A stretch of 47,844 bases of DNA from NCBI GenBank assembly GCA_963582395.1, contig CAUZTK010000001.1, positions 1-47,844 of the forward strand, read 5' to 3'. Each line of letters starts with the position of its first letter. The first letter of the stretch is position 1. The DNA comes from Planctomycetota bacterium. GTDB lineage: Bacteria > Planctomycetota > Planctomycetia > Planctomycetales > Planctomycetaceae. Both the position numbers and the translations under genes were made by a program. The notes under the pieces are model-generated. The model made no database searches. It had not been told where the DNA came from and worked only from the letters and a program-made list of their open reading frames with translations. Positions 211 to 11,073 of the stretch are shown piece by piece.

Positions 211-1254
211 TTACGTCAATTTTTGGGCTCTGAAAATCGATTTTGCAAAACTTCCGTTAATGACTTCAACGGTCAGCGTTTCCTTCATCTTTATCTTGGG
301 CTGCGCCTGAATCAACATCACGGTCCGAATGTACTCGCCCGTCTCCCGTTCTTCTTCCTTTGCCAAATCTTCAAGACGTTGACGCTGCGCCAGCGCGTCG
401 GCCACAACTTCGTTCCAGTCGGTCCGCGTTTCCAGCTTGATCGGCAGCTTGATCATATCTTCAGATTTGAGTTCCGCCGCCGAGACGTGATGCAGGATAT
501 TACTGGCGAACTGCTGTTTCTCCGGCTTGTGTTCGGTCGCCGAGGTCGCGGTGAACTCGATGATACACGACGGCTGGAACCGGGCCAGCGTGTCGAACGA
601 CAACGGCGTGCGCGCGTTGTGGGCTTCATCCATGATAACCACGAGCCGACGCATCCGCAGGACATTTGCCAGCGAAAACGGGATCACGCCGTCGTCGTCC
701 CGCTCCAACATCGCTTCGAGTTCCGCAGGCAGTCCGCTAAAATGATGTTGCAGCGAACCCGACGACTCGTAGACCTTACGGCCTTCCGTTTCTTCAACCC
801 GAAATGCTTGCAGTGTCGAAACGACAATGCACGTTTCGCCGTCGAGCGTTCCCCGCTGGACGTACAGCGCTTCGGTCAGGTCCATCACACTGACTCGACC
901 ACCGAACGCCGCATCGACCGCTTGCCGGTAGGGATGCTTCCGATTCCGCAACGCTGCCAACGTCTGATCCCGGATGGTGTTCGTCGGGACCAGCCAGAGA
1001 CAAACAGCCTGTTCGGTTTGCAGAAGTTCTTTAGCGGCCATGCCCAGCGCGTGGCAGGCCATCAACGTCTTGCCGCCGCCGGTCGGAACCCGCAGGCAAA
1101 CGTAGGGGAGTTCAGGCAATGCAGGGACGCTTCGATAAGGTCGTTCCAACTGGTGCAGAAACGCCATCTTCGCCCCTTGTAACGCCATCCGCAGATAGGC
1201 TTCCAGCGCTTCAAGGCTTCGCTGTTGATATTCGCGGAGTACAAGCATGGTCAT
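211..1254 (-). pseudogene. Type III restriction enzyme Res subunit / DEAD-DEAH helicase, N-terminal ~330 aa only (3'-truncated)
   Basis: 347-aa ORF, ATG at 1252-1254. Walker A PTGGGKT, DEAH box in VIMDEAHN, FTAT motif. Family members are normally ~800-1000 aa. The recognisable sequence ends near ...ETLTVEVI (about nt 260), where the DNA becomes AT-rich and the ORF ends in a junk tail NGSFAKSIFRAQKLT*. Confidence 0.75.
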
Positions 1255-1257
1255 GCC

Positions 1258-1668
1258 TTACTCCCCTCCCTTTTTAGGGAGGGGTTGGGGGATGGTCTCT
1301 CCGTCTTCCGACCATCCTGCGTTTCGCGCAATGTCCTCCACAACCGCATCCACATCTTGCAGAACATCATCGTTCGAGTAACGAATCACGCGCAGCCCTT
1401 CTCGTTCCAGAAACTTCGTTCGTTGTTGATCGTAGGCCGCGCGGCCGTCGTGACTTCGCCTATCCAACTCGATCACAAGTCGTACTTCGGCGCAGTAGAA
1501 ATCCACGAAGTACGGGCCCAATACCTGCTGACGTCGAAATTTCAATCCCCCCAGCCGCTTGCCGCGCAGTCGGCTCCACAACAGGCGTTCTGGGAACGTC
1601 GAGTCGGTGCGGAGTTCTCTTACACGCACGGATTTTTGCGGTGGGATTCGGTGGCATTTTTCACGCAT
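1258..1668 (-). CDS. DUF559 (Vsr-like) endonuclease domain protein
   Basis: 136-aa ORF, ATG at 1666-1668. Typical DUF559 core ERLLWSRLRGKRLGGLKFRRQQVLGPYFVDFYCAEVRLVIELDRRSHD...REGLRVIRYSNDDVL. The C-terminal tail PQPLPKKGGE is encoded by the flanking hairpin repeat. Confidence 0.85.
   Translation of the reverse strand: MREKCHRIPPQKSVRVRELRTDSTFPERLLWSRLRGKRLGGLKFRRQQVLGPYFVDFYCAEVRLVIELDRRSHDGRAAYDQQRTKFLEREGLRVIRYSNDDVLQDVDAVVEDIARNAGWSEDGETIPQPLPKKGGE
1263..1295 (+). repeat. GC-rich palindromic unit, copy i (CCCCTCCCT-TTTT-AGGGAGGGG-TT-GGGGGATGG)
   Basis: 9-bp perfect hairpin 1263-1271 / 1276-1284. Same unit as 1679-1711 (inverted) and 1827-1859 (direct). Confidence 0.85.
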
Positions 1669-1678
1669 GACGTTTTGA

Positions 1679-1711
1679 CCCTCCCCTAACCCCTCCCTGA
1701 AAGGGATGGGG
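1679..1711 (-). repeat. GC-rich palindromic unit, copy ii (reverse orientation)
   Basis: Plus strand reads CCCTCCCC-TAA-CCCCTCCCT-GAA-AGGGATGGGG. The reverse complement CCCCATCCCT-TTC-AGGGAGGGG-TTA-GGGGAGGG matches copies i and iii. Confidence 0.85.
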
Positions 1712-1717
1712 ATTTCT

Positions 1718-2298
1718 TCAACTCACTTTGATCTCATACGGAACCTGCTTGAATACGATGCCTTCGCGTTTCAGTCGTGCTGCGCCCAATCGACAGCCTT
1801 CGCCGTAGATGACGCGACTTTCTTGTCCCCCATCCCTTTTAGGGAGGGGCCGGGGGAGGTTGTCTCGCAAATCAACTCCAGAACTCGCCCCGTCAGGACG
1901 TTCCCGCCATTGGGTCGCTTGTCGCCCAAGATGCCGTTGAACAGCAGGTAGTACGCCGTGCCGTCGCATTCGCCAATGAAAGGCGTCTTGCCAGTCGCCC
2001 GCTTCGGAATCGGCTCGCCGGTTTCGGTGAAGAACACATGAGCAGCCAAGTCGGAGAATTTCACATCCGGGCGGATCATCCCGGATTCGTCGAACAGCAA
2101 TTCACCCAGCTTACAGTAACGGAATCCGCCACCCATGCCTTCGACTTTGACAGTCTGGTCCCCCTTCCGATGCGCATATCCGTTGACGGTGCGTTCTAAT
2201 CGCTGGGACGCGACGTTCCGGCAGACTTCTGGTTCGATTTCAACTGCGATGAATTGTCGCTGTCCGCTATGCAGCCAGTGGTCACATGGTCTATCGGC
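1718..2298 (-). pseudogene. Type III-like DNA methyltransferase (Mod), C-terminal remnant, 5'-deleted and frameshifted
   Basis: My translation upstream of ORF 1771-2136 stays open to ~2298: ...HSGQRQFIAVEIEPEVCRNVASQRLERTVNGYAHRKGDQTVKVEGMGGGFRYCKLGE...YYLLFNGILGDKRPNGGNVLTGRVLELI. After the repeat at 1827-1859 the family C-terminus continues in another frame (ORF 1718-1969: ESRVIYGEGCRLGAARLKREGIVFKQVPYEIKVS*). The N-terminal catalytic part is absent; the remnant abuts the stop of the next gene at 2291. Confidence 0.7.
1827..1859 (+). repeat. GC-rich palindromic unit, copy iii (solo, inside the mod remnant)
   Basis: CCCCCATCCCT-TTT-AGGGAGGGG-CC-GGGGGAGG. The mod reading frame changes across it. 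Confidence 0.85.
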
Positions 2299-3490
2299 TC
2301 AGTTCCTCGCGCAGCCGGTGGGCAAGAGTCAGGGACGACAGCTCATCCAAACAGAACGGGTTGACCAGCAGTTGACCGTCAGCCAGGCGTCCGTGCCCGA
2401 CGTACACCGGTGGCGTGCCGTCGCGCAGGCTGCGGCAGACGTCGAACGCCGAGCGGCCGACGTCTGTTTCATCAATTGCGATCTCCAGCAGCGGCGGGCT
2501 CTGGCCGTCTCCCTTGTCGATGACCCGGCATTCGACCGGCGAGGCTTGCAGCTCTGCCGAAATCGTTTCCAGATAGCCGCGAAACGTGTCGAGATCCGCG
2601 TCGTAAGATCCGGAAGCAAACAGATCGAGGGCGGTCAGCAGTGCCACAATTTCTTCCTTCGAGACTTTGAGCGTCCGGCCAAGTCCGTGCCGTGGAATGC
2701 CGTTCAGTTTTGATTTGTCGATCAGTTCGGAGGGCGGGTCCCAAAGTTGCAGATGATCGTCCATGTCGAGCATCTGGACGGCGGCCGATGCGATCAGGTC
2801 ACGGCGGCCGCATAAAATGCCGGTTGACTGCGGCCCCCGAATCGATTTTCCGCCGCTGAACGCGACTAAATCGGCTCCTTGAGCGGCAATCGACGAGAGG
2901 TTGTTGCGCGGCGGCAGTTCGCCGGCGGCATCGACGAGCACCGGAAAATTGTGTCGGCGAGCGCGTTCGACTAACTCTGGCAGCGGCGGCTGCGACGTCG
3001 GTGCGTAGCCGTAAAACAGACCGACCGTGTTCGGACCGAACGCAGCTTCGTATTCCCACGCTTCCGTCCGCCGCACGCCGGCATTGGAAACGATTTCGTT
3101 GAAGCCGACCTCCACCAGCCGGGCTCCCGACGCGCGAACCGCGTGATCGTAGCCGCTGCGCTGCTCGCGAGCCACCACGAACTCGCAGGGAAAGTCGTCG
3201 CAGTGCGGCAGCCGCTCCATTTTTCCCAGGTCGTACCGGCAGATGATTGCCGCGGCGCCGAGAGTTAACGCGGCGGCCGAACCGGCGGTGACCAGTCCCG
3301 CTTCGGTCCCGGTCACGGCGGCGATCCGCCGCGACGCGGCTGCTTGAAGCTGTTCCAGCGGAACAGTCGCCGCGGCCGCCTCTCGAAACGCATTGAGCAC
3401 GGCCGCAGGCATCGGCGCGCCCCCCAAACGCGTGACACTTCCCGACGCATTGATGATCGGTTGAAGCCCCAGACCCTCGTAAATACTCAT
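2291..3490 (-). CDS. SelA-like PLP-dependent enzyme (selenium-transferase-related / DgaE-type ammonia-lyase family)
   Basis: 399-aa ORF, ATG at 3488-3490. N-terminus IINASGSVTRLGG. PLP-lysine context LVAFSGGKSIRGPQSTGIL. Confidence 0.75.
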   Translation of the reverse strand: MSIYEGLGLQPIINASGSVTRLGGAPMPAAVLNAFREAAAATVPLEQLQAAASRRIAAVTGTEAGLVTAGSAAALTLGAAAIICRYDLGKMERLPHCDDFPCEFVVAREQRSGYDHAVRASGARLVEVGFNEIVSNAGVRRTEAWEYEAAFGPNTVGLFYGYAPTSQPPLPELVERARRHNFPVLVDAAGELPPRNNLSSIAAQGADLVAFSGGKSIRGPQSTGILCGRRDLIASAAVQMLDMDDHLQLWDPPSELIDKSKLNGIPRHGLGRTLKVSKEEIVALLTALDLFASGSYDADLDTFRGYLETISAELQASPVECRVIDKGDGQSPPLLEIAIDETDVGRSAFDVCRSLRDGTPPVYVGHGRLADGQLLVNPFCLDELSSLTLAHRLREELSR

Positions 3491-3646: not shown

Positions 3647-5248
3647 TTGTCACAACCAAGAGAGACTGCCTTGTTCGACATCATCATTCGCGGCGGCACA
3701 ATCATCGACGGTACCAAAGCGGCCCGTTTCCGCGGCGACTTGGGAATTCAGGGAGACCGGATCACGCAGATCGGCGATCTCAGCCAAACCGAAACGCGGG
3801 TGAGCATCGACGCCGTCGGGAAAATTGTCGCACCCGGTTTCGTCGACGTCCATAATCACTCTGACGGCTGGATGCTCAAGAGGCCGCACCTGCTGTCGAA
3901 AACCATACAGGGCTTCACCACCGAAGTGCTGATGCTCGACGGGATTTCGTACGCTCCGGTGAACGAGCAGACCGCCCGCCAATGGCTGTTCTACCTGCGG
4001 CCCCTCGACGGGCTGCAAATGGATGAATATCGCGGCTGGCAGAGCATCGCCGAGTTCATGGACTGTATCGACGGCAACAACGTTCAGAATGCAATAGCCC
4101 ACGTTCCGTATGCCAACGTTCGCAGCCTGGTGTGCGGTTTCGGACGCGGATCGGTCGATGACTTTCAGATGGGGCAAATTAAGGCGGAAATCAGCAAAGG
4201 CATGCAGGAAGGTGCCGTCGGAATTTCGACCGGGTTGGATTACATCGCGCAGTGCTTCTCGACGACCGACGAACTCGTCGAGGCCGCTTCGGCAATGGCC
4301 GAATACAACGGACTGTACGTCACACACGTCCGTTACAAGTCCGGGCGGATCAGGGCAATCCAAGAGGCGGTCGACATCGGCCGCCGCGCCGGCGTGCGGG
4401 TACACATCTCTCATTTGCAGGAGGAAGGCCAACGTGCCGTCGACGAACTTCTTAACTACATCGACAACGTAGCGCGGCAGCAGGTCGATTTGTCTTTCGA
4501 CGTCTATCCGTATCGGCCCGGCTCCACCATGCTAAGTTATCTACTGCCGTACGAGGTCTGGGATGACGGTCCGCTCGCGGCGCTCAGTAAGCTCCACGAC
4601 ACGGGAATCAGAACAAGGTTTCGCGAGAGTTTGAAGGCTTATCCATGCGATCTCGACAAGATGACGATTGCCTGGGTCGCCAGCAAAGACAACAGCCGTC
4701 ATCAGGGAAAGCTGTTGAGCCAGTATGTCGCAGAAACGGGCGTTCCCGCCGAAGAGGCGCTTTTGGACCTGCTCATTGAAGAGCGGCTGGCGGTGCTGCT
4801 GGTCTTCGACAAAGGGGACGACAAATTCGTTCAGCCGTTCTTGCAGCACGACCTGTACATGCTGGGAACCGACGGCATCTTTTTCGATGACGCCGCCGTA
4901 CATCCGCGACAGTTCGGTTCGTCGGGGCGGCTGCTAGGACGCTGCGTCCGCGATTGGAAGCTATTTTCGCTGGAAGAGGCGGTCTATAAACTGAGCGGCT
5001 ACGCGGCCGATCGATTCGGCCTCGAAAATCGCAGCATTCTGCGGGAAGGCAATTTTGCCGACCTGGTGATCTTTGATCCCGAGACGATCATCGACCCTGC
5101 CACGCTCCAGAACCCGCAACAGCACACGGTCGGCATCGAACACGTTTTGGTGAACGGCGTGCCGATCATCCGCGACGGGACCGCCATCGAATCGACCGAA
5201 CAGCGTCTGCCGGGCAGGTCCCTGAAACACCAACGGGGAGAACCATGA
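3647..5248 (+). CDS. N-acyl-D-amino-acid deacylase (D-aminoacylase) family amidohydrolase
   Basis: 533-aa ORF. FDIIIRGGTIIDG and metal-binding GFVDVHNHSD. The table start is TTG 3647; TTG 3671 (LFDIIIRGG, preceded by AAGAGAG) is an equally plausible start. Confidence 0.85.
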   Translation: MSQPRETALFDIIIRGGTIIDGTKAARFRGDLGIQGDRITQIGDLSQTETRVSIDAVGKIVAPGFVDVHNHSDGWMLKRPHLLSKTIQGFTTEVLMLDGISYAPVNEQTARQWLFYLRPLDGLQMDEYRGWQSIAEFMDCIDGNNVQNAIAHVPYANVRSLVCGFGRGSVDDFQMGQIKAEISKGMQEGAVGISTGLDYIAQCFSTTDELVEAASAMAEYNGLYVTHVRYKSGRIRAIQEAVDIGRRAGVRVHISHLQEEGQRAVDELLNYIDNVARQQVDLSFDVYPYRPGSTMLSYLLPYEVWDDGPLAALSKLHDTGIRTRFRESLKAYPCDLDKMTIAWVASKDNSRHQGKLLSQYVAETGVPAEEALLDLLIEERLAVLLVFDKGDDKFVQPFLQHDLYMLGTDGIFFDDAAVHPRQFGSSGRLLGRCVRDWKLFSLEEAVYKLSGYAADRFGLENRSILREGNFADLVIFDPETIIDPATLQNPQQHTVGIEHVLVNGVPIIRDGTAIESTEQRLPGRSLKHQRGEP

Positions 5249-9315: not shown

Positions 9316-11073
9316 TCAATTATCCGAATCGTCGAAATTCTCTTTCGAGAAGTCCGCCAGGATTTTGCCGGCGAACCGGAGAATGCCCGGGTGCCCGAAC
9401 ATCAGTCCCTCGATCCGGTTCCCGACGCGATTGAGTTTCAGCGTCAACGTGTCGTCGCCCGGTAGAAAGGCGTCAATCGCCATTTGTCGCAGTTTGAGGA
9501 TTGCTTTGCTCTCATTGCGGCCGGCGTGACGTGCCTGCCTCAGCTTCAACCACGGTCCCGGCTTAATGAGCAGGTCGACAAACGGGTCGTCCGCTTGGCC
9601 GGTGTTTTGTTGGCCGACCCGCCCGATGGCCGCCTTCAACTCATCCAGTGCCGTCTCACCGGCGGCGTACCAAACTACTTCGCGGCTGCTGCCGATGTAA
9701 ACCGTGTTGCTGCCCAGAAAGCCGCTGAAGAAGGGATGGTCCTTCGTGGCCGCGACAAATTTGTGGATTTTGACGTCGCCCACTTCGTCGACGTTCAGCT
9801 CCACTTGTTGACCCCGGCTTTTTTTGGGAAACAGTTTGATGACCTCGATGATCGCGGTGCCGTCGACCTCCCGAATCCCTCCGACGAAGGTCTGCTTGCC
9901 ATTCTCGTTCGAGTGTCCTTCCACAAACCCGTCGATCACTCCGGAATTGATTCCCGCGTCGATCATGTCGAAAAACAAGTCGGCCGATTTCTTGCGGTTC
10001 GCTTGTTCTTCGTCGGTCGAATCGGTCTCGGCGGCAACCGTGTTCTTCGTCCGCGATCGCAGCAATTTGGACAAACGCAAAAAATTATTCTTCCGCATGG
10101 GGTCGAGGGGGTGGTTGATGCGCCCACTGAGAATGGCGTTTTTTGTCCGCTCGATGTTCGCGAAACGGCTCGGCTGCTGGGCGAGCAGTTTCAGGCTCGC
10201 CTCCAATTCAGAGCCGGGAAGAGGATCGAGCAGAACATCCAGTGTTACTCCCGTTTTTTTCATGTCGTTGAGGACCAGCCCTAGATTCGCATGTTTTGCG
10301 TCCACGTAAATCCGCGCGAGTTCGTCCAACTGAATTTCAGTCAGCAGTTTGCGCAGCGCAAAGTCGTCGTGGGTTTCCTGCTGGCCCTGTTTGACGAGTC
10401 CCAGTAACTCTTTGCGAGTGTTCTGTTGAAACGACTCGCGGCGGATCTTCATCGCCTCGGGCGAGTTTTTTGTGTTTAGGACATCGAGCGACAGGTCGTA
10501 CTTTTTCGCAAGCTCAGCCATCGGCGGACGCGGATCGGGCAGCGTCGGCGGAATTTCGGCCCGTCTCTTGCTAATGATTGCATACTGCTCCGTAATCGTT
10601 CCTTCCTCAGCGGTCCGCTCAAAGTTCCGAATCCGCATGAATCCGAGAACTTCGACTCCTGTGTCATTCTCCATTTCGAGCTTATACAACGTGGCGAACT
10701 GCTTTCGGCTATCGATGCCAAGATCGTCGAGGTTTCCGCGGCGGAACCGATTGAGGTTCTTAAGAGGGATGCTCGTTAAATAATGAATGGTTTTTTCGCC
10801 CAAGATGACGTCCAGCCGGAACAACCGCGTGCGGTCGATACCGATCAGGAACACGTCGAAGTATTCCTTCACGTTGGCAAGCTGCTTTTGCTCGATCTTG
10901 TCGGTCAGACCGAAGATGTAGTCGAGATCTTGATAAAGCGGAATCGCGCCGGGATGGACCAGCTTCACGCTTGGTGCCACTTGGGTTGGCGTCAACTCCT
11001 GGGCCGCGGCAGAGACGGCGGCGACCGCTGAGATGATAGCCGCTGCCGCCGCAAGTCGGACAAAACGAAACAC
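9316..11073 (-). CDS. secreted hypothetical protein (no recognisable domain)
   Basis: 585-aa ORF, GTG start at 11073 preceded by AAGGAG. Signal-peptide-like N-terminus MFRFVRLAAAAAIISAVAAVSAAAQE. Coding-like composition throughout. Confidence 0.65.
   Translation of the reverse strand: MFRFVRLAAAAAIISAVAAVSAAAQELTPTQVAPSVKLVHPGAIPLYQDLDYIFGLTDKIEQKQLANVKEYFDVFLIGIDRTRLFRLDVILGEKTIHYLTSIPLKNLNRFRRGNLDDLGIDSRKQFATLYKLEMENDTGVEVLGFMRIRNFERTAEEGTITEQYAIISKRRAEIPPTLPDPRPPMAELAKKYDLSLDVLNTKNSPEAMKIRRESFQQNTRKELLGLVKQGQQETHDDFALRKLLTEIQLDELARIYVDAKHANLGLVLNDMKKTGVTLDVLLDPLPGSELEASLKLLAQQPSRFANIERTKNAILSGRINHPLDPMRKNNFLRLSKLLRSRTKNTVAAETDSTDEEQANRKKSADLFFDMIDAGINSGVIDGFVEGHSNENGKQTFVGGIREVDGTAIIEVIKLFPKKSRGQQVELNVDEVGDVKIHKFVAATKDHPFFSGFLGSNTVYIGSSREVVWYAAGETALDELKAAIGRVGQQNTGQADDPFVDLLIKPGPWLKLRQARHAGRNESKAILKLRQMAIDAFLPGDDTLTLKLNRVGNRIEGLMFGHPGILRFAGKILADFSKENFDDSDN

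Follow-up and report, generated by a model that had tools for sequence, protein, structure and literature searches.

What is a small gene for a predicted nuclease of the DUF559 family (PF04480) doing between the two genes of a Type III restriction-modification (R-M) operon, and why is it bracketed by inverted copies of one GC-rich repeat? The question is raised by a stretch of 47,844 nt from a planctomycete (GenBank assembly GCA_963582395.1, contig CAUZTK010000001.1; hereinafter the window), in which open reading frame (ORF) translation and Pfam matches identify the interval 211–2290 on the minus strand as the remains of such an operon. The answer proposed here, to which we give even chances, is that the block 1249–1717 represents a compact selfish cassette of ~470 nt, that is, a DUF559 gene between two inverted repeats of the type known in Escherichia coli as BoxC, PIT (potential intrastrand triplex) or TM (triplex motif). 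A broader proposition, that nucleases of the DUF559/YcjD type are the missing protein partners of these repeats and thus form a second, mechanistically different counterpart of the repetitive extragenic palindrome (REP) and REP-associated tyrosine transposase (RAYT) system, is put forward more tentatively, at slightly less than even chances. The relevant features of the window are the following.

1249–1717, minus strand: the whole inserted cassette, consisting of unit ii, a 10-nt spacer, the DUF559 ORF, unit i, the stop codon and an extra ATGACC in frame with res.
1258–1668, minus strand: ORF of 136 amino acids (aa) for a predicted Vsr-like PD-(D/E)XK nuclease of the DUF559 family (PF04480; Pfam E = 2.8e-36).
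1263–1295, plus strand: unit i, a triplex motif of the BoxC/PIT/TM type at the 3' end of DUF559, with its third block toward the gene body.
1679–1711, minus strand: unit ii, a triplex motif located 5' of DUF559, with TTA as loop 2 ("type A").
1828–1860, plus strand: unit iii, a triplex motif inside the mod coding sequence, with CCG as loop 2 ("type B").
1718–2290, minus strand: remnant of the Type III mod gene, its last ~190 codons in two frames, identified by C-terminal alignment to relatives; stop codon at 1718–1720.
211–1254, minus strand: N-terminal fragment of the Type III res gene, 347 aa (Pfam ResIII, E = 1e-14), in which the ATG at 1248 is the probable ancestral start.

Comparison of this interval with uninterrupted operons shows the block 1249–1717 to be an insertion. 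A search for relatives of the res fragment yields homologs with 60–73% identity that cover ~96% of it, and three of the best matches were taken as loci (L209, L210 and L211). In L209, a Dehalococcoidia metagenome-assembled genome (MAG) with 73% identity in res, mod ends with ...GIVFKQIPYGIKVS and its stop codon, and the res ATG follows after 2 nt; L210 (68% identity) has the same arrangement of mod stop, 2 nt and res ATG. These are the two closest res homologs looked up that have an adjacent mod, and neither of them contains a DUF559 gene or the units. The end of the window mod, ...GIVFKQVPYEIKVS and stop, matches that of L209, and res starts with MLVLREYQQRSLEAL as compared with MLELRDYQRRSLDAL, with ~469 nt between the two genes in the window. 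The translated mod remnant also aligns with the C-termini of the N6_N4_Mtase genes of L209, L210 and a further locus, L127 (...GNVLT...VIYGEGCRLGAARLKREGIVFKQVPYEIKVS and stop). Because the upstream ATGACC is missing from the uninterrupted operons, translation of res most likely began ancestrally with the ATG at 1248–1246 (MLVLREYQQ...), not with that at 1254, and the inserted block would therefore be approximately 1249–1717. The original prediction, made from the sequence of the window by a reader without databases, described a 463-nt block filling the gap between a res start at 1254 and the mod stop at 1718. The insertion at the mod-res junction is borne out by the uninterrupted junctions, and the res start has to be moved, which lengthens the block to ~469 nt; the alternative allowed for in that prediction, namely that related intact operons always carry a repeat-free DUF559 gene at this position, is contradicted by L209 and L210.

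The closest relatives of the DUF559 gene itself are found in diverse contexts. L127, with a protein 78% identical to that of the window, retains an intact mod (622 aa), which is followed by units, DUF559, a unit and res. Since the cassette occupies the same site in both, the insertion is old, having taken place before the two lineages split, and the operon was not destroyed by it. One precise site between conserved genes is accordingly occupied in the window and L127 and empty in L209 and L210, the empty alleles being those of distant lineages. In L126 (79% identity), only ~50 nt of mod and the first res codons remain next to the cassette, the neighbors are unrelated, and homology to the window cassette spans the gene together with the flanking units. 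L128 (65% identity) presents a different context again, with units on both sides and no R-M system. In the window, neither R-M gene survives as such: mod is reduced to about its last 190 codons, split between two frames, and res to its first 347 codons, so that a Type III operon with intact mod (N6_N4_Mtase) and res (ResIII helicase plus nuclease) is not present. The DUF559 gene has a ratio of nonsynonymous to synonymous substitution rates (dN/dS) of 0.09–0.24 (window versus relatives; four copies), and is thus kept under purifying selection while the surrounding operon decays. Taken together, the empty junctions of L209 and L210, the contexts of L127, L126 and L128, and the dN/dS values show that DUF559 is an insertion and not a component of the R-M system.

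The units, too, are capable of insertion. Unit iii breaks the reading frame of mod; the mod C-termini of L209 and L210 contain no unit at this point and read ...VLKSLPPNDGPRVIYGEG... where the window has unit iii. At the same place in L127 (~9690–9745), two units are translated in frame inside the intact 622-aa mod (RPSPDPSLRGRGG...GPSLRGKG). The presence of units in the mod genes of both loci implies that units can insert alone, even into coding DNA. Elsewhere in L127 (9868–9930), the last ~21 nt of mod (tatgaaatcaaagtgagttaa) are imperfectly repeated between the stop codon and the upstream units; the left junction of this locus thus contains a local duplication that is absent from the window.

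Each unit is built of three blocks: the first is C-rich, the G-rich second is complementary to it, and the third, also G-rich, mirrors the second (AGGGAGGGG / GGGGAGGG). Unit i reads CCCCTCCCT-TTTT-AGGGAGGGG-TT-GGGGGATGG on the plus strand (C-block 1263–1271, loop 1272–1275, G-block 1276–1284, loop 1285–1286, mirror G-block 1287–1295), unit ii reads CCCCATCCCT-TTC-AGGGAGGGG-TTA-GGGGAGGG on the minus strand, and unit iii reads CCCCATCCCT-TTT-AGGGAGGGG-CCG-GGGGAGGT on the plus strand, so that loop 1 is TTTT, TTC and TTT, and loop 2 is TT(G), TTA and CCG in units i, ii and iii, respectively. Because the mirroring of the second block by the third is the signature of intrastrand-triplex motifs, the units are assigned to this class. 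Unit i is recognized by a strict three-block finder that demands 7-nt blocks and tolerates one mismatch at most, and units ii and iii fit the design with one bulged A and one mismatch. Folded as DNA, unit i becomes a hairpin of nine perfect base pairs (−10.7 kcal/mol, z = −3.2) and unit ii one of 9 bp with one bulged A (−7.5 kcal/mol, z = −1.2), the latter being unexceptional by energy alone. A repeat search extends units i and ii to inverted arms at 1262–1310 and 1664–1712 (49 nt, 76% complementary) and shows unit iii, which it lists in one direct and one inverted repeat, to be 79% identical to unit i over 39 nt. The 22-nt core pattern has three matches in the window against 0.02 expected, and none of 100 shuffles reaches three. 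All three copies are clustered, and no further copy is found at up to 11 mismatches over 33 nt in the 47.8 kb of the source genome that the window covers.

The repeats are closely fitted to the gene. Residues 121–136 of the DUF559 protein are encoded by unit i, and the last ten of them, PQPLPKKGGE, are translated from it; the stop codon lies 3 nt from the in-frame res ATG. At the other end, the third block of unit ii contains GGAGG on the minus strand and ends 10 nt before the DUF559 ATG. In these respects the original prediction was accurate: the ORF and units i and ii lie where it placed them, with the units inverted around the ORF, a ~9-bp GC hairpin in each and a repeat-encoded protein tail. 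It overlooked the mirrored third block, which makes the unit a three-block design rather than a hairpin with an arbitrary tail, and it did not mention the third copy inside mod.

The three-block design is known from E. coli. The repeat there called BoxC was later described anew under the name of PIT element, and subsequently under that of "TM" intrastrand-triplex motif (Holder et al. 2015, PMC4666352, where earlier BoxC/PIT work by Bergler, Bachellier and Hoyne is cited). The E. coli motif, TM_ECO, has the consensus CCCTCNCCC-N3-6-GGGNGAGGG-N3-GGGNGAGGG, with a loop 1 of 3–6 nt and a 3-nt loop 2 that is either TTA (type A) or CCG (type B); strain MG1655 contains 23 copies, including five inverted doublets, and motifs of this type occur in more than 260 genomes and form a stable triplex in vitro, with nuclear magnetic resonance evidence favoring a triplex over a quadruplex (PMC4666352); a G-quadruplex reading of the G-rich half of the unit was set aside on this ground. 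The window units share with these repeats the three-block layout, the TTA and CCG variants of loop 2, the GC-rich composition, the dispersed multi-copy occurrence and the frequent inverted doublets. They do not match the E. coli consensus, the blocks being CCCC(A)TCCCT / AGGGAGGGG / GGGGAGGG, with CCCCTCCCT/AGGGAGGGG in place of CCCTCNCCC/GGGNGAGGG; one of the window copies is located within a coding sequence, in contrast to TM_ECO, which is reported to be always intergenic in E. coli (PMC4666352); and the window repeats frame a nuclease gene, whereas the literature gives no associated mobility gene. Holder et al. 2015, the main paper on these repeats, reports explicitly that neither transposase or integrase remnants nor another mobility function were found near TM motifs, and does not mention an endonuclease (PMC4666352). 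The window units can thus be classified, by layout and loops, as a lineage-specific sequence variant of the BoxC/PIT/TM design. Scans for Rfam families, tRNAs, promoters and terminators produced nothing relevant. The original prediction treated the pairing of this unit with DUF559 as undescribed. This stands for the pairing, which appears to be new (no paper was found that links DUF559, ycjD or PF04480 to these repeats), and not for the repeat, which, like the protein family, was already known.

DUF559 genes elsewhere are regularly framed by such units, as is seen in a sample of 80 metagenomic loci with DUF559 relatives at 37–57% identity. Perfect 8-bp GC hairpins occur at 4–9 per kb within 150 nt on either side of DUF559, versus 0.1–0.23 per kb at distances of 500–3000 nt. 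A GC hairpin is present at the 5' ends of 37% of the DUF559 genes, compared with 5% of control genes in the same loci (Fisher p = 2e-9; odds ratio 11), and at the 3' ends of 55%, compared with 4% (p = 3e-17; odds ratio 27), where the second figure, and not the first, may be inflated because the loci were ranked with a query that includes the tail. A strict search detects three-block motifs in the upstream flanks of 45% and the downstream flanks of 46% of the loci, against 0.042 per kb elsewhere. Comparison of the upstream with the downstream flank reveals a common repeat in 48 of 71 loci (threshold, 95th percentile of the between-locus null), so that the repeats form cognate pairs, which vary from lineage to lineage. 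The arrangement is also oriented. The third block mostly points toward the gene, the upstream motif and the start codon are usually separated by a few nucleotides (often 0–13 nt), and translation usually stops within the downstream motif or shortly after it, which gives the recurrent order of hairpin, third block, start codon, gene, third block, hairpin and stop codon. When related cassettes occur in different contexts, homology ends at the outer edge of the hairpin (e.g., L138 and L140, and other pairs), which indicates that the cassette is a discrete module. Many of the 120 closest proteins end in tails resembling PxPLPxxGEG or ...PPxxPP, in which a unit is translated, and the association would likewise explain the proline- and glycine-rich tails of many DUF559 proteins in the databases.

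DUF559 genes flanked by triplex motifs are also present in Sphingomonas parapaucimobilis, in a Deinococcus and in a Sinorhizobium, and bacteria with a DUF559 gene between such repeats belong to at least five phyla, among them Planctomycetota, Pseudomonadota, Cyanobacteriota and Deinococcota. The cyanobacterial case comes from a plasmid of Synechocystis sp. B12 (CP101712.1; L218, 1228–3752), where a TM-flanked DUF559 gene has a DUF1156 fragment (174 aa) on one side and, on the other, an ORF of 434 aa that weakly matches N6_N4_Mtase; the cassette appears to split a DUF1156-type methyltransferase gene, a second apparent insertion into a DNA methylase locus. In a metagenomic contig (Ga0137388_10453082, L183), two tandem DUF559 copies ~530 nt apart are 86% identical over 351 nt, an arrangement that unequal exchange between flanking units would produce.

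Seen from the side of the repeat, the picture is different. The 21-nt pattern common to the three window copies occurs in at least 120 loci of a species-genome collection, mostly in Planctomycetota; some MAGs, as well as Botrimarina colliarenosi, contain it at several loci each. Among the matches listed in the genome and viral scans, a DUF559 ORF adjoins only one of 126 (129 with the three other assemblies of the source, L001–L003, which were set aside); at this single locus, L099, the ORF is framed by units. This low figure was considered as a refutation of the association and was rejected as such, since just such a figure is to be expected of a repeat that is dispersed and whose resident gene is rare. 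The units are scattered yet strongly enriched when viewed from the gene, an asymmetry that a relationship of the REP/RAYT type predicts. The enrichment next to DUF559 genes, on the absence of which the original prediction would have been abandoned, is accordingly found from the gene side (odds ratios of 11 and 27), 1/126 from the repeat side notwithstanding.

The solitary units are accompanied by gene-less doublets. An inverted partner within 400 nt is found on the third-block side of 29 of 118 units and on the other side of one of 120. The modal spacer length is 53 nt, one contig carries two doublets with the same spacer sequence, and the ends of the doublets are those of the DUF559 cassettes (hairpin, loop, GGGGAGGGTC ... 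GACCCTCCCC, loop, hairpin). An origin of the doublets by internal deletion of cassettes was examined and rejected because the spacers are dissimilar to the ends of the DUF559 gene. In a contig classed as viral (IMGVR_UViG_3300048833_000733, L004), three inverted doublets with 95-nt spacers lie within 13 kb (4381–4535 and two further sites). No other recurrent enzyme is found beside the units: clustering of 1195 nearby ORFs returned abundant housekeeping families only, e.g., pyridine-nucleotide oxidoreductase. Altogether, these comparisons show, at the level of gene and repeat architecture, a widespread, oriented and lineage-cognate module that coexists with solo copies and gene-less doublets of its repeat.

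In E. coli, the resident gene would be ycjD. In strain K-12 (NC_000913, 1351039–1351830), the DUF559 protein YcjD ends in ...SPSP and its stop codon within a decayed triplex motif; downstream of the gene, its last ~45 nt recur as a partial duplicate, after which comes a full TM_ECO/BoxC copy just upstream of fabI. BoxC itself was first noticed here, in the envM (fabI) region. Among 5,426 complete E. coli genomes, ycjD is present in 3,378 (62%), always as a single copy between sapF and fabI, and the per-genome number of places with the 60-nt TM_ECO unit has a median of 19. Where ycjD is missing, the site is taken by the 7.5-kb eefRABCD operon (PMC12817139); no simple empty ycjD allele is found in E. 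coli, given that eefRABCD replaces ycjD. In the genomes listed, the unit occupies 17–33 places in K-12-like, A and B1 strains, 15 in O157:H7, and 3–7 in B2 strains (536, CFT073 and UPEC132). The co-distribution of ycjD with TM_ECO copy number is suggestive only, because the lineages are few and non-independent.

The protein encoded in the window is a member of DUF559 (124 bits against a curated cut-off of 20.6, E = 2.8e-36); besides this family, a Pfam scan of the ORF detects only a weak match to MTES_1575, and neither Y1_Tnp nor Vsr (PF03852). DUF559 is classed with Vsr and DUF2726 among the PD-(D/E)XK nucleases. By sequence, it matches PDB entry 3HRL, a DUF559 protein of unknown function (E = 8e-20), and the AlphaFold model (pLDDT 84.7), which is confident except for the disordered repeat-encoded tail, superimposes on it with a TM-score of 0.89; Foldseek ranks 3HRL first and the catalytic domain of the homing endonuclease I-Bth0305I second (E = 9e-5), with Vsr weaker. 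All 11 invariant columns of a 42-sequence alignment are preserved, including E27, E67, D69, H73 and D80, and with them the acidic and histidine residues expected of the active site. In codon 70 (1459–1461), a nearly invariant glycine is replaced by arginine (G70R), which turns the ELDG motif into ELDR; an identical protein, with ELDR unchanged, is present in three other assemblies.

These observations can be combined in the following scenario. The cassette would have entered the 2-nt mod-res gap of a Type III R-M operon in an ancestor and then been inherited. The nuclease would recognize its cognate repeat, be it folded into a hairpin or triplex or in duplex form, and cut the DNA there; repair of the break would then use a repeat-flanked donor as template, for which the repeats would provide portable arms of homology (~35–45 bp). 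The gene would spread in this manner, and the doublets in trans, in a process comparable to intron-less homing or to the REP/RAYT partnership. Because a PD-(D/E)XK nuclease has no strand-transfer chemistry, joining would have to be performed by host repair. The logic of REP/RAYT or homing elements was already invoked in the original prediction; the architecture fits it, and the mechanism is still one that we infer, throughout, from comparative anatomy.

Several points besides that last one, and the possible inflation of the 3' figure, weigh against this scenario and the selfish cassette as such. No nuclease activity, target site or mobility event is observed. Near-identical cassettes at different sites of one genome were not found, so that recent movement is unsupported. 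The uninterrupted junctions come from other phyla and contain no repeat, and hence would not distinguish entry into unoccupied DNA from entry into a pre-existing repeat. The search for target-site duplications that the original prediction proposed came out negative: no convincing one exists at the window cassette, in L126, in L127 or at the doublets, where only a 3-nt TGA duplication (within chance) and palindromic AAT/ATT extensions are seen at the cassette and doublet ends. The window protein may be impaired through G70R. Finally, in E. coli, a single-copy gene confined to one locus would fit a domesticated or immobile ycjD at least as well as an active selfish gene.

The first of the competing explanations, which we consider unlikely, holds that the repeats act in cis, as a ribosome-binding site, mRNA stabilizer, insulator or terminator, that the nuclease has its targets elsewhere, and that solo and doublet repeats are relics of cassettes and not substrates. 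It would account for the upstream third block with GGAGG at a short distance, often 0–13 nt, from the start codon, for the ORF ending inside the downstream hairpin, and for the partial duplicate of the 3' end of ycjD beside a motif remnant, which is what one would expect of a copy in decay. Against it, the doublet spacers, with their preferred length of 53 nt, are dissimilar to the DUF559 gene ends. The units moreover outnumber the genes (at least 120 loci versus one gene; ~19 per E. coli genome versus 0–1 ycjD) and insert alone into coding DNA, as in the mod genes of the window and L127, and earlier work saw no promoter or terminator activity of PIT elements, according to Holder et al. 2015 (PMC4666352).

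It is quite unlikely, in our estimate, that the association is passive, with TM repeats being instability hot spots at which dispensable DUF559 genes survive or accumulate without any enzymatic tie. TM loci are indeed tied to genome instability and elevated rearrangement in E. coli (Holder et al. 2015, PMC4666352), the E. coli locus is indel-polymorphic, with ycjD and eefRABCD as alternative alleles, and the deletions in L126 end near units. A hot spot, however, would not be expected to select one gene family only, when control genes in the same loci have hairpins in 4–5% of cases and no other family recurs beside the units; nor would it fix the repeats in orientation, abutting start and stop codons, or make cognate repeat pairs co-vary with the gene across phyla. 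Such an oriented, specific and cognate architecture is not predicted by a passive model. That DUF559 is a Type III R-M accessory (a Vsr-like repair nickase or a second nuclease) with incidental repeats is highly improbable: its position between mod and res in the window and L127, the distance of 3 nt to the res ATG, suggestive of co-transcription, and the second cassette in the Synechocystis DUF1156/N6_N4 methylase gene speak for it, whereas the closest intact operons (L209, L210) have no DUF559, close relatives of the gene have unrelated neighbors, purifying selection persists after the decay of mod and res, and mod is an N6/N4 methylase, T:G repair being required with a C5 methylase.

The putative DUF559 cassette resembles several known systems without being identical to any. 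With REP sequences, their doublets (REPINs) and RAYT (TnpA_REP), it shares a small nuclease-type gene between inverted copies of a GC-rich palindromic repeat, a repeat that is otherwise dispersed as solo and inverted-doublet copies, a gene that is usually single-copy, and variants that are cognate within a lineage. The inverted, dispersed palindromic flanks are thus present and the HUH/Y1 transposase is not: RAYT is an IS200-like transposase of that class, whereas the cassette protein is a PD-(D/E)XK Vsr-like enzyme that would be unable to form a covalent DNA intermediate, and the cassette repeat has a third, mirror block. The Vsr-like (EDxHD) homing endonucleases, such as I-Bth0305I (PDB 3R3P), have the same fold, and free-standing homing endonuclease genes likewise insert between two conserved genes without disruption and have empty alleles, whereas the cassette contains no intron or intein and is framed by dispersed repeats. 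E. coli Vsr belongs to the same superfamily clade, and many sources annotate these ORFs as "very-short-patch-repair endonuclease"; structural similarity is weak, however, the Pfam match is to DUF559 and not to Vsr (PF03852), and there is no partner C5-cytosine methyltransferase, the neighboring methylase being of the N6_N4 type. Finally, autonomous insertion sequences (IS) and the miniature inverted-repeat transposable elements derived from them also have terminal inverted repeats of ~33–45 nt and short gene-less derivatives with the same ends, whereas the cassette has no transposase of a known class and no target-site duplication and, at ~470 nt, is below the size of known autonomous IS.

If the broader proposition is correct, few self-promoting DNA elements of bacteria would be smaller than the ~470-nt gene-carrying form of this system, and the REP/RAYT paradigm, in which a repeat has its resident enzyme, would gain a second nuclease class. 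BoxC/PIT/TM repeats have been known in E. coli since the 1990s without a known function or means of spread, and DUF559 is a large family of small nucleases without an assigned role; a link between them would give both orphans a testable function, and E. coli K-12, with ycjD and ~20 TM_ECO copies, makes this link accessible to direct genetics and biochemistry.

As for the remainder of the locus, the window has a G+C content of 58% and a planctomycetal look, its best protein relatives being annotated as Planctomycetaceae, Pirellulales or Phycisphaerae. The third of the res loci, L211 (67% identity), contains no mod upstream of res and has a gene for an IS200-like Y1 transposase ~630 nt upstream (2920–3366). 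In the window, an AT-rich stretch at 120–250 directly follows the point at which homology to res ends (about codon 333) and marks the deletion of the rest of this gene; the minus-strand ORF beyond it runs off the start of the window.

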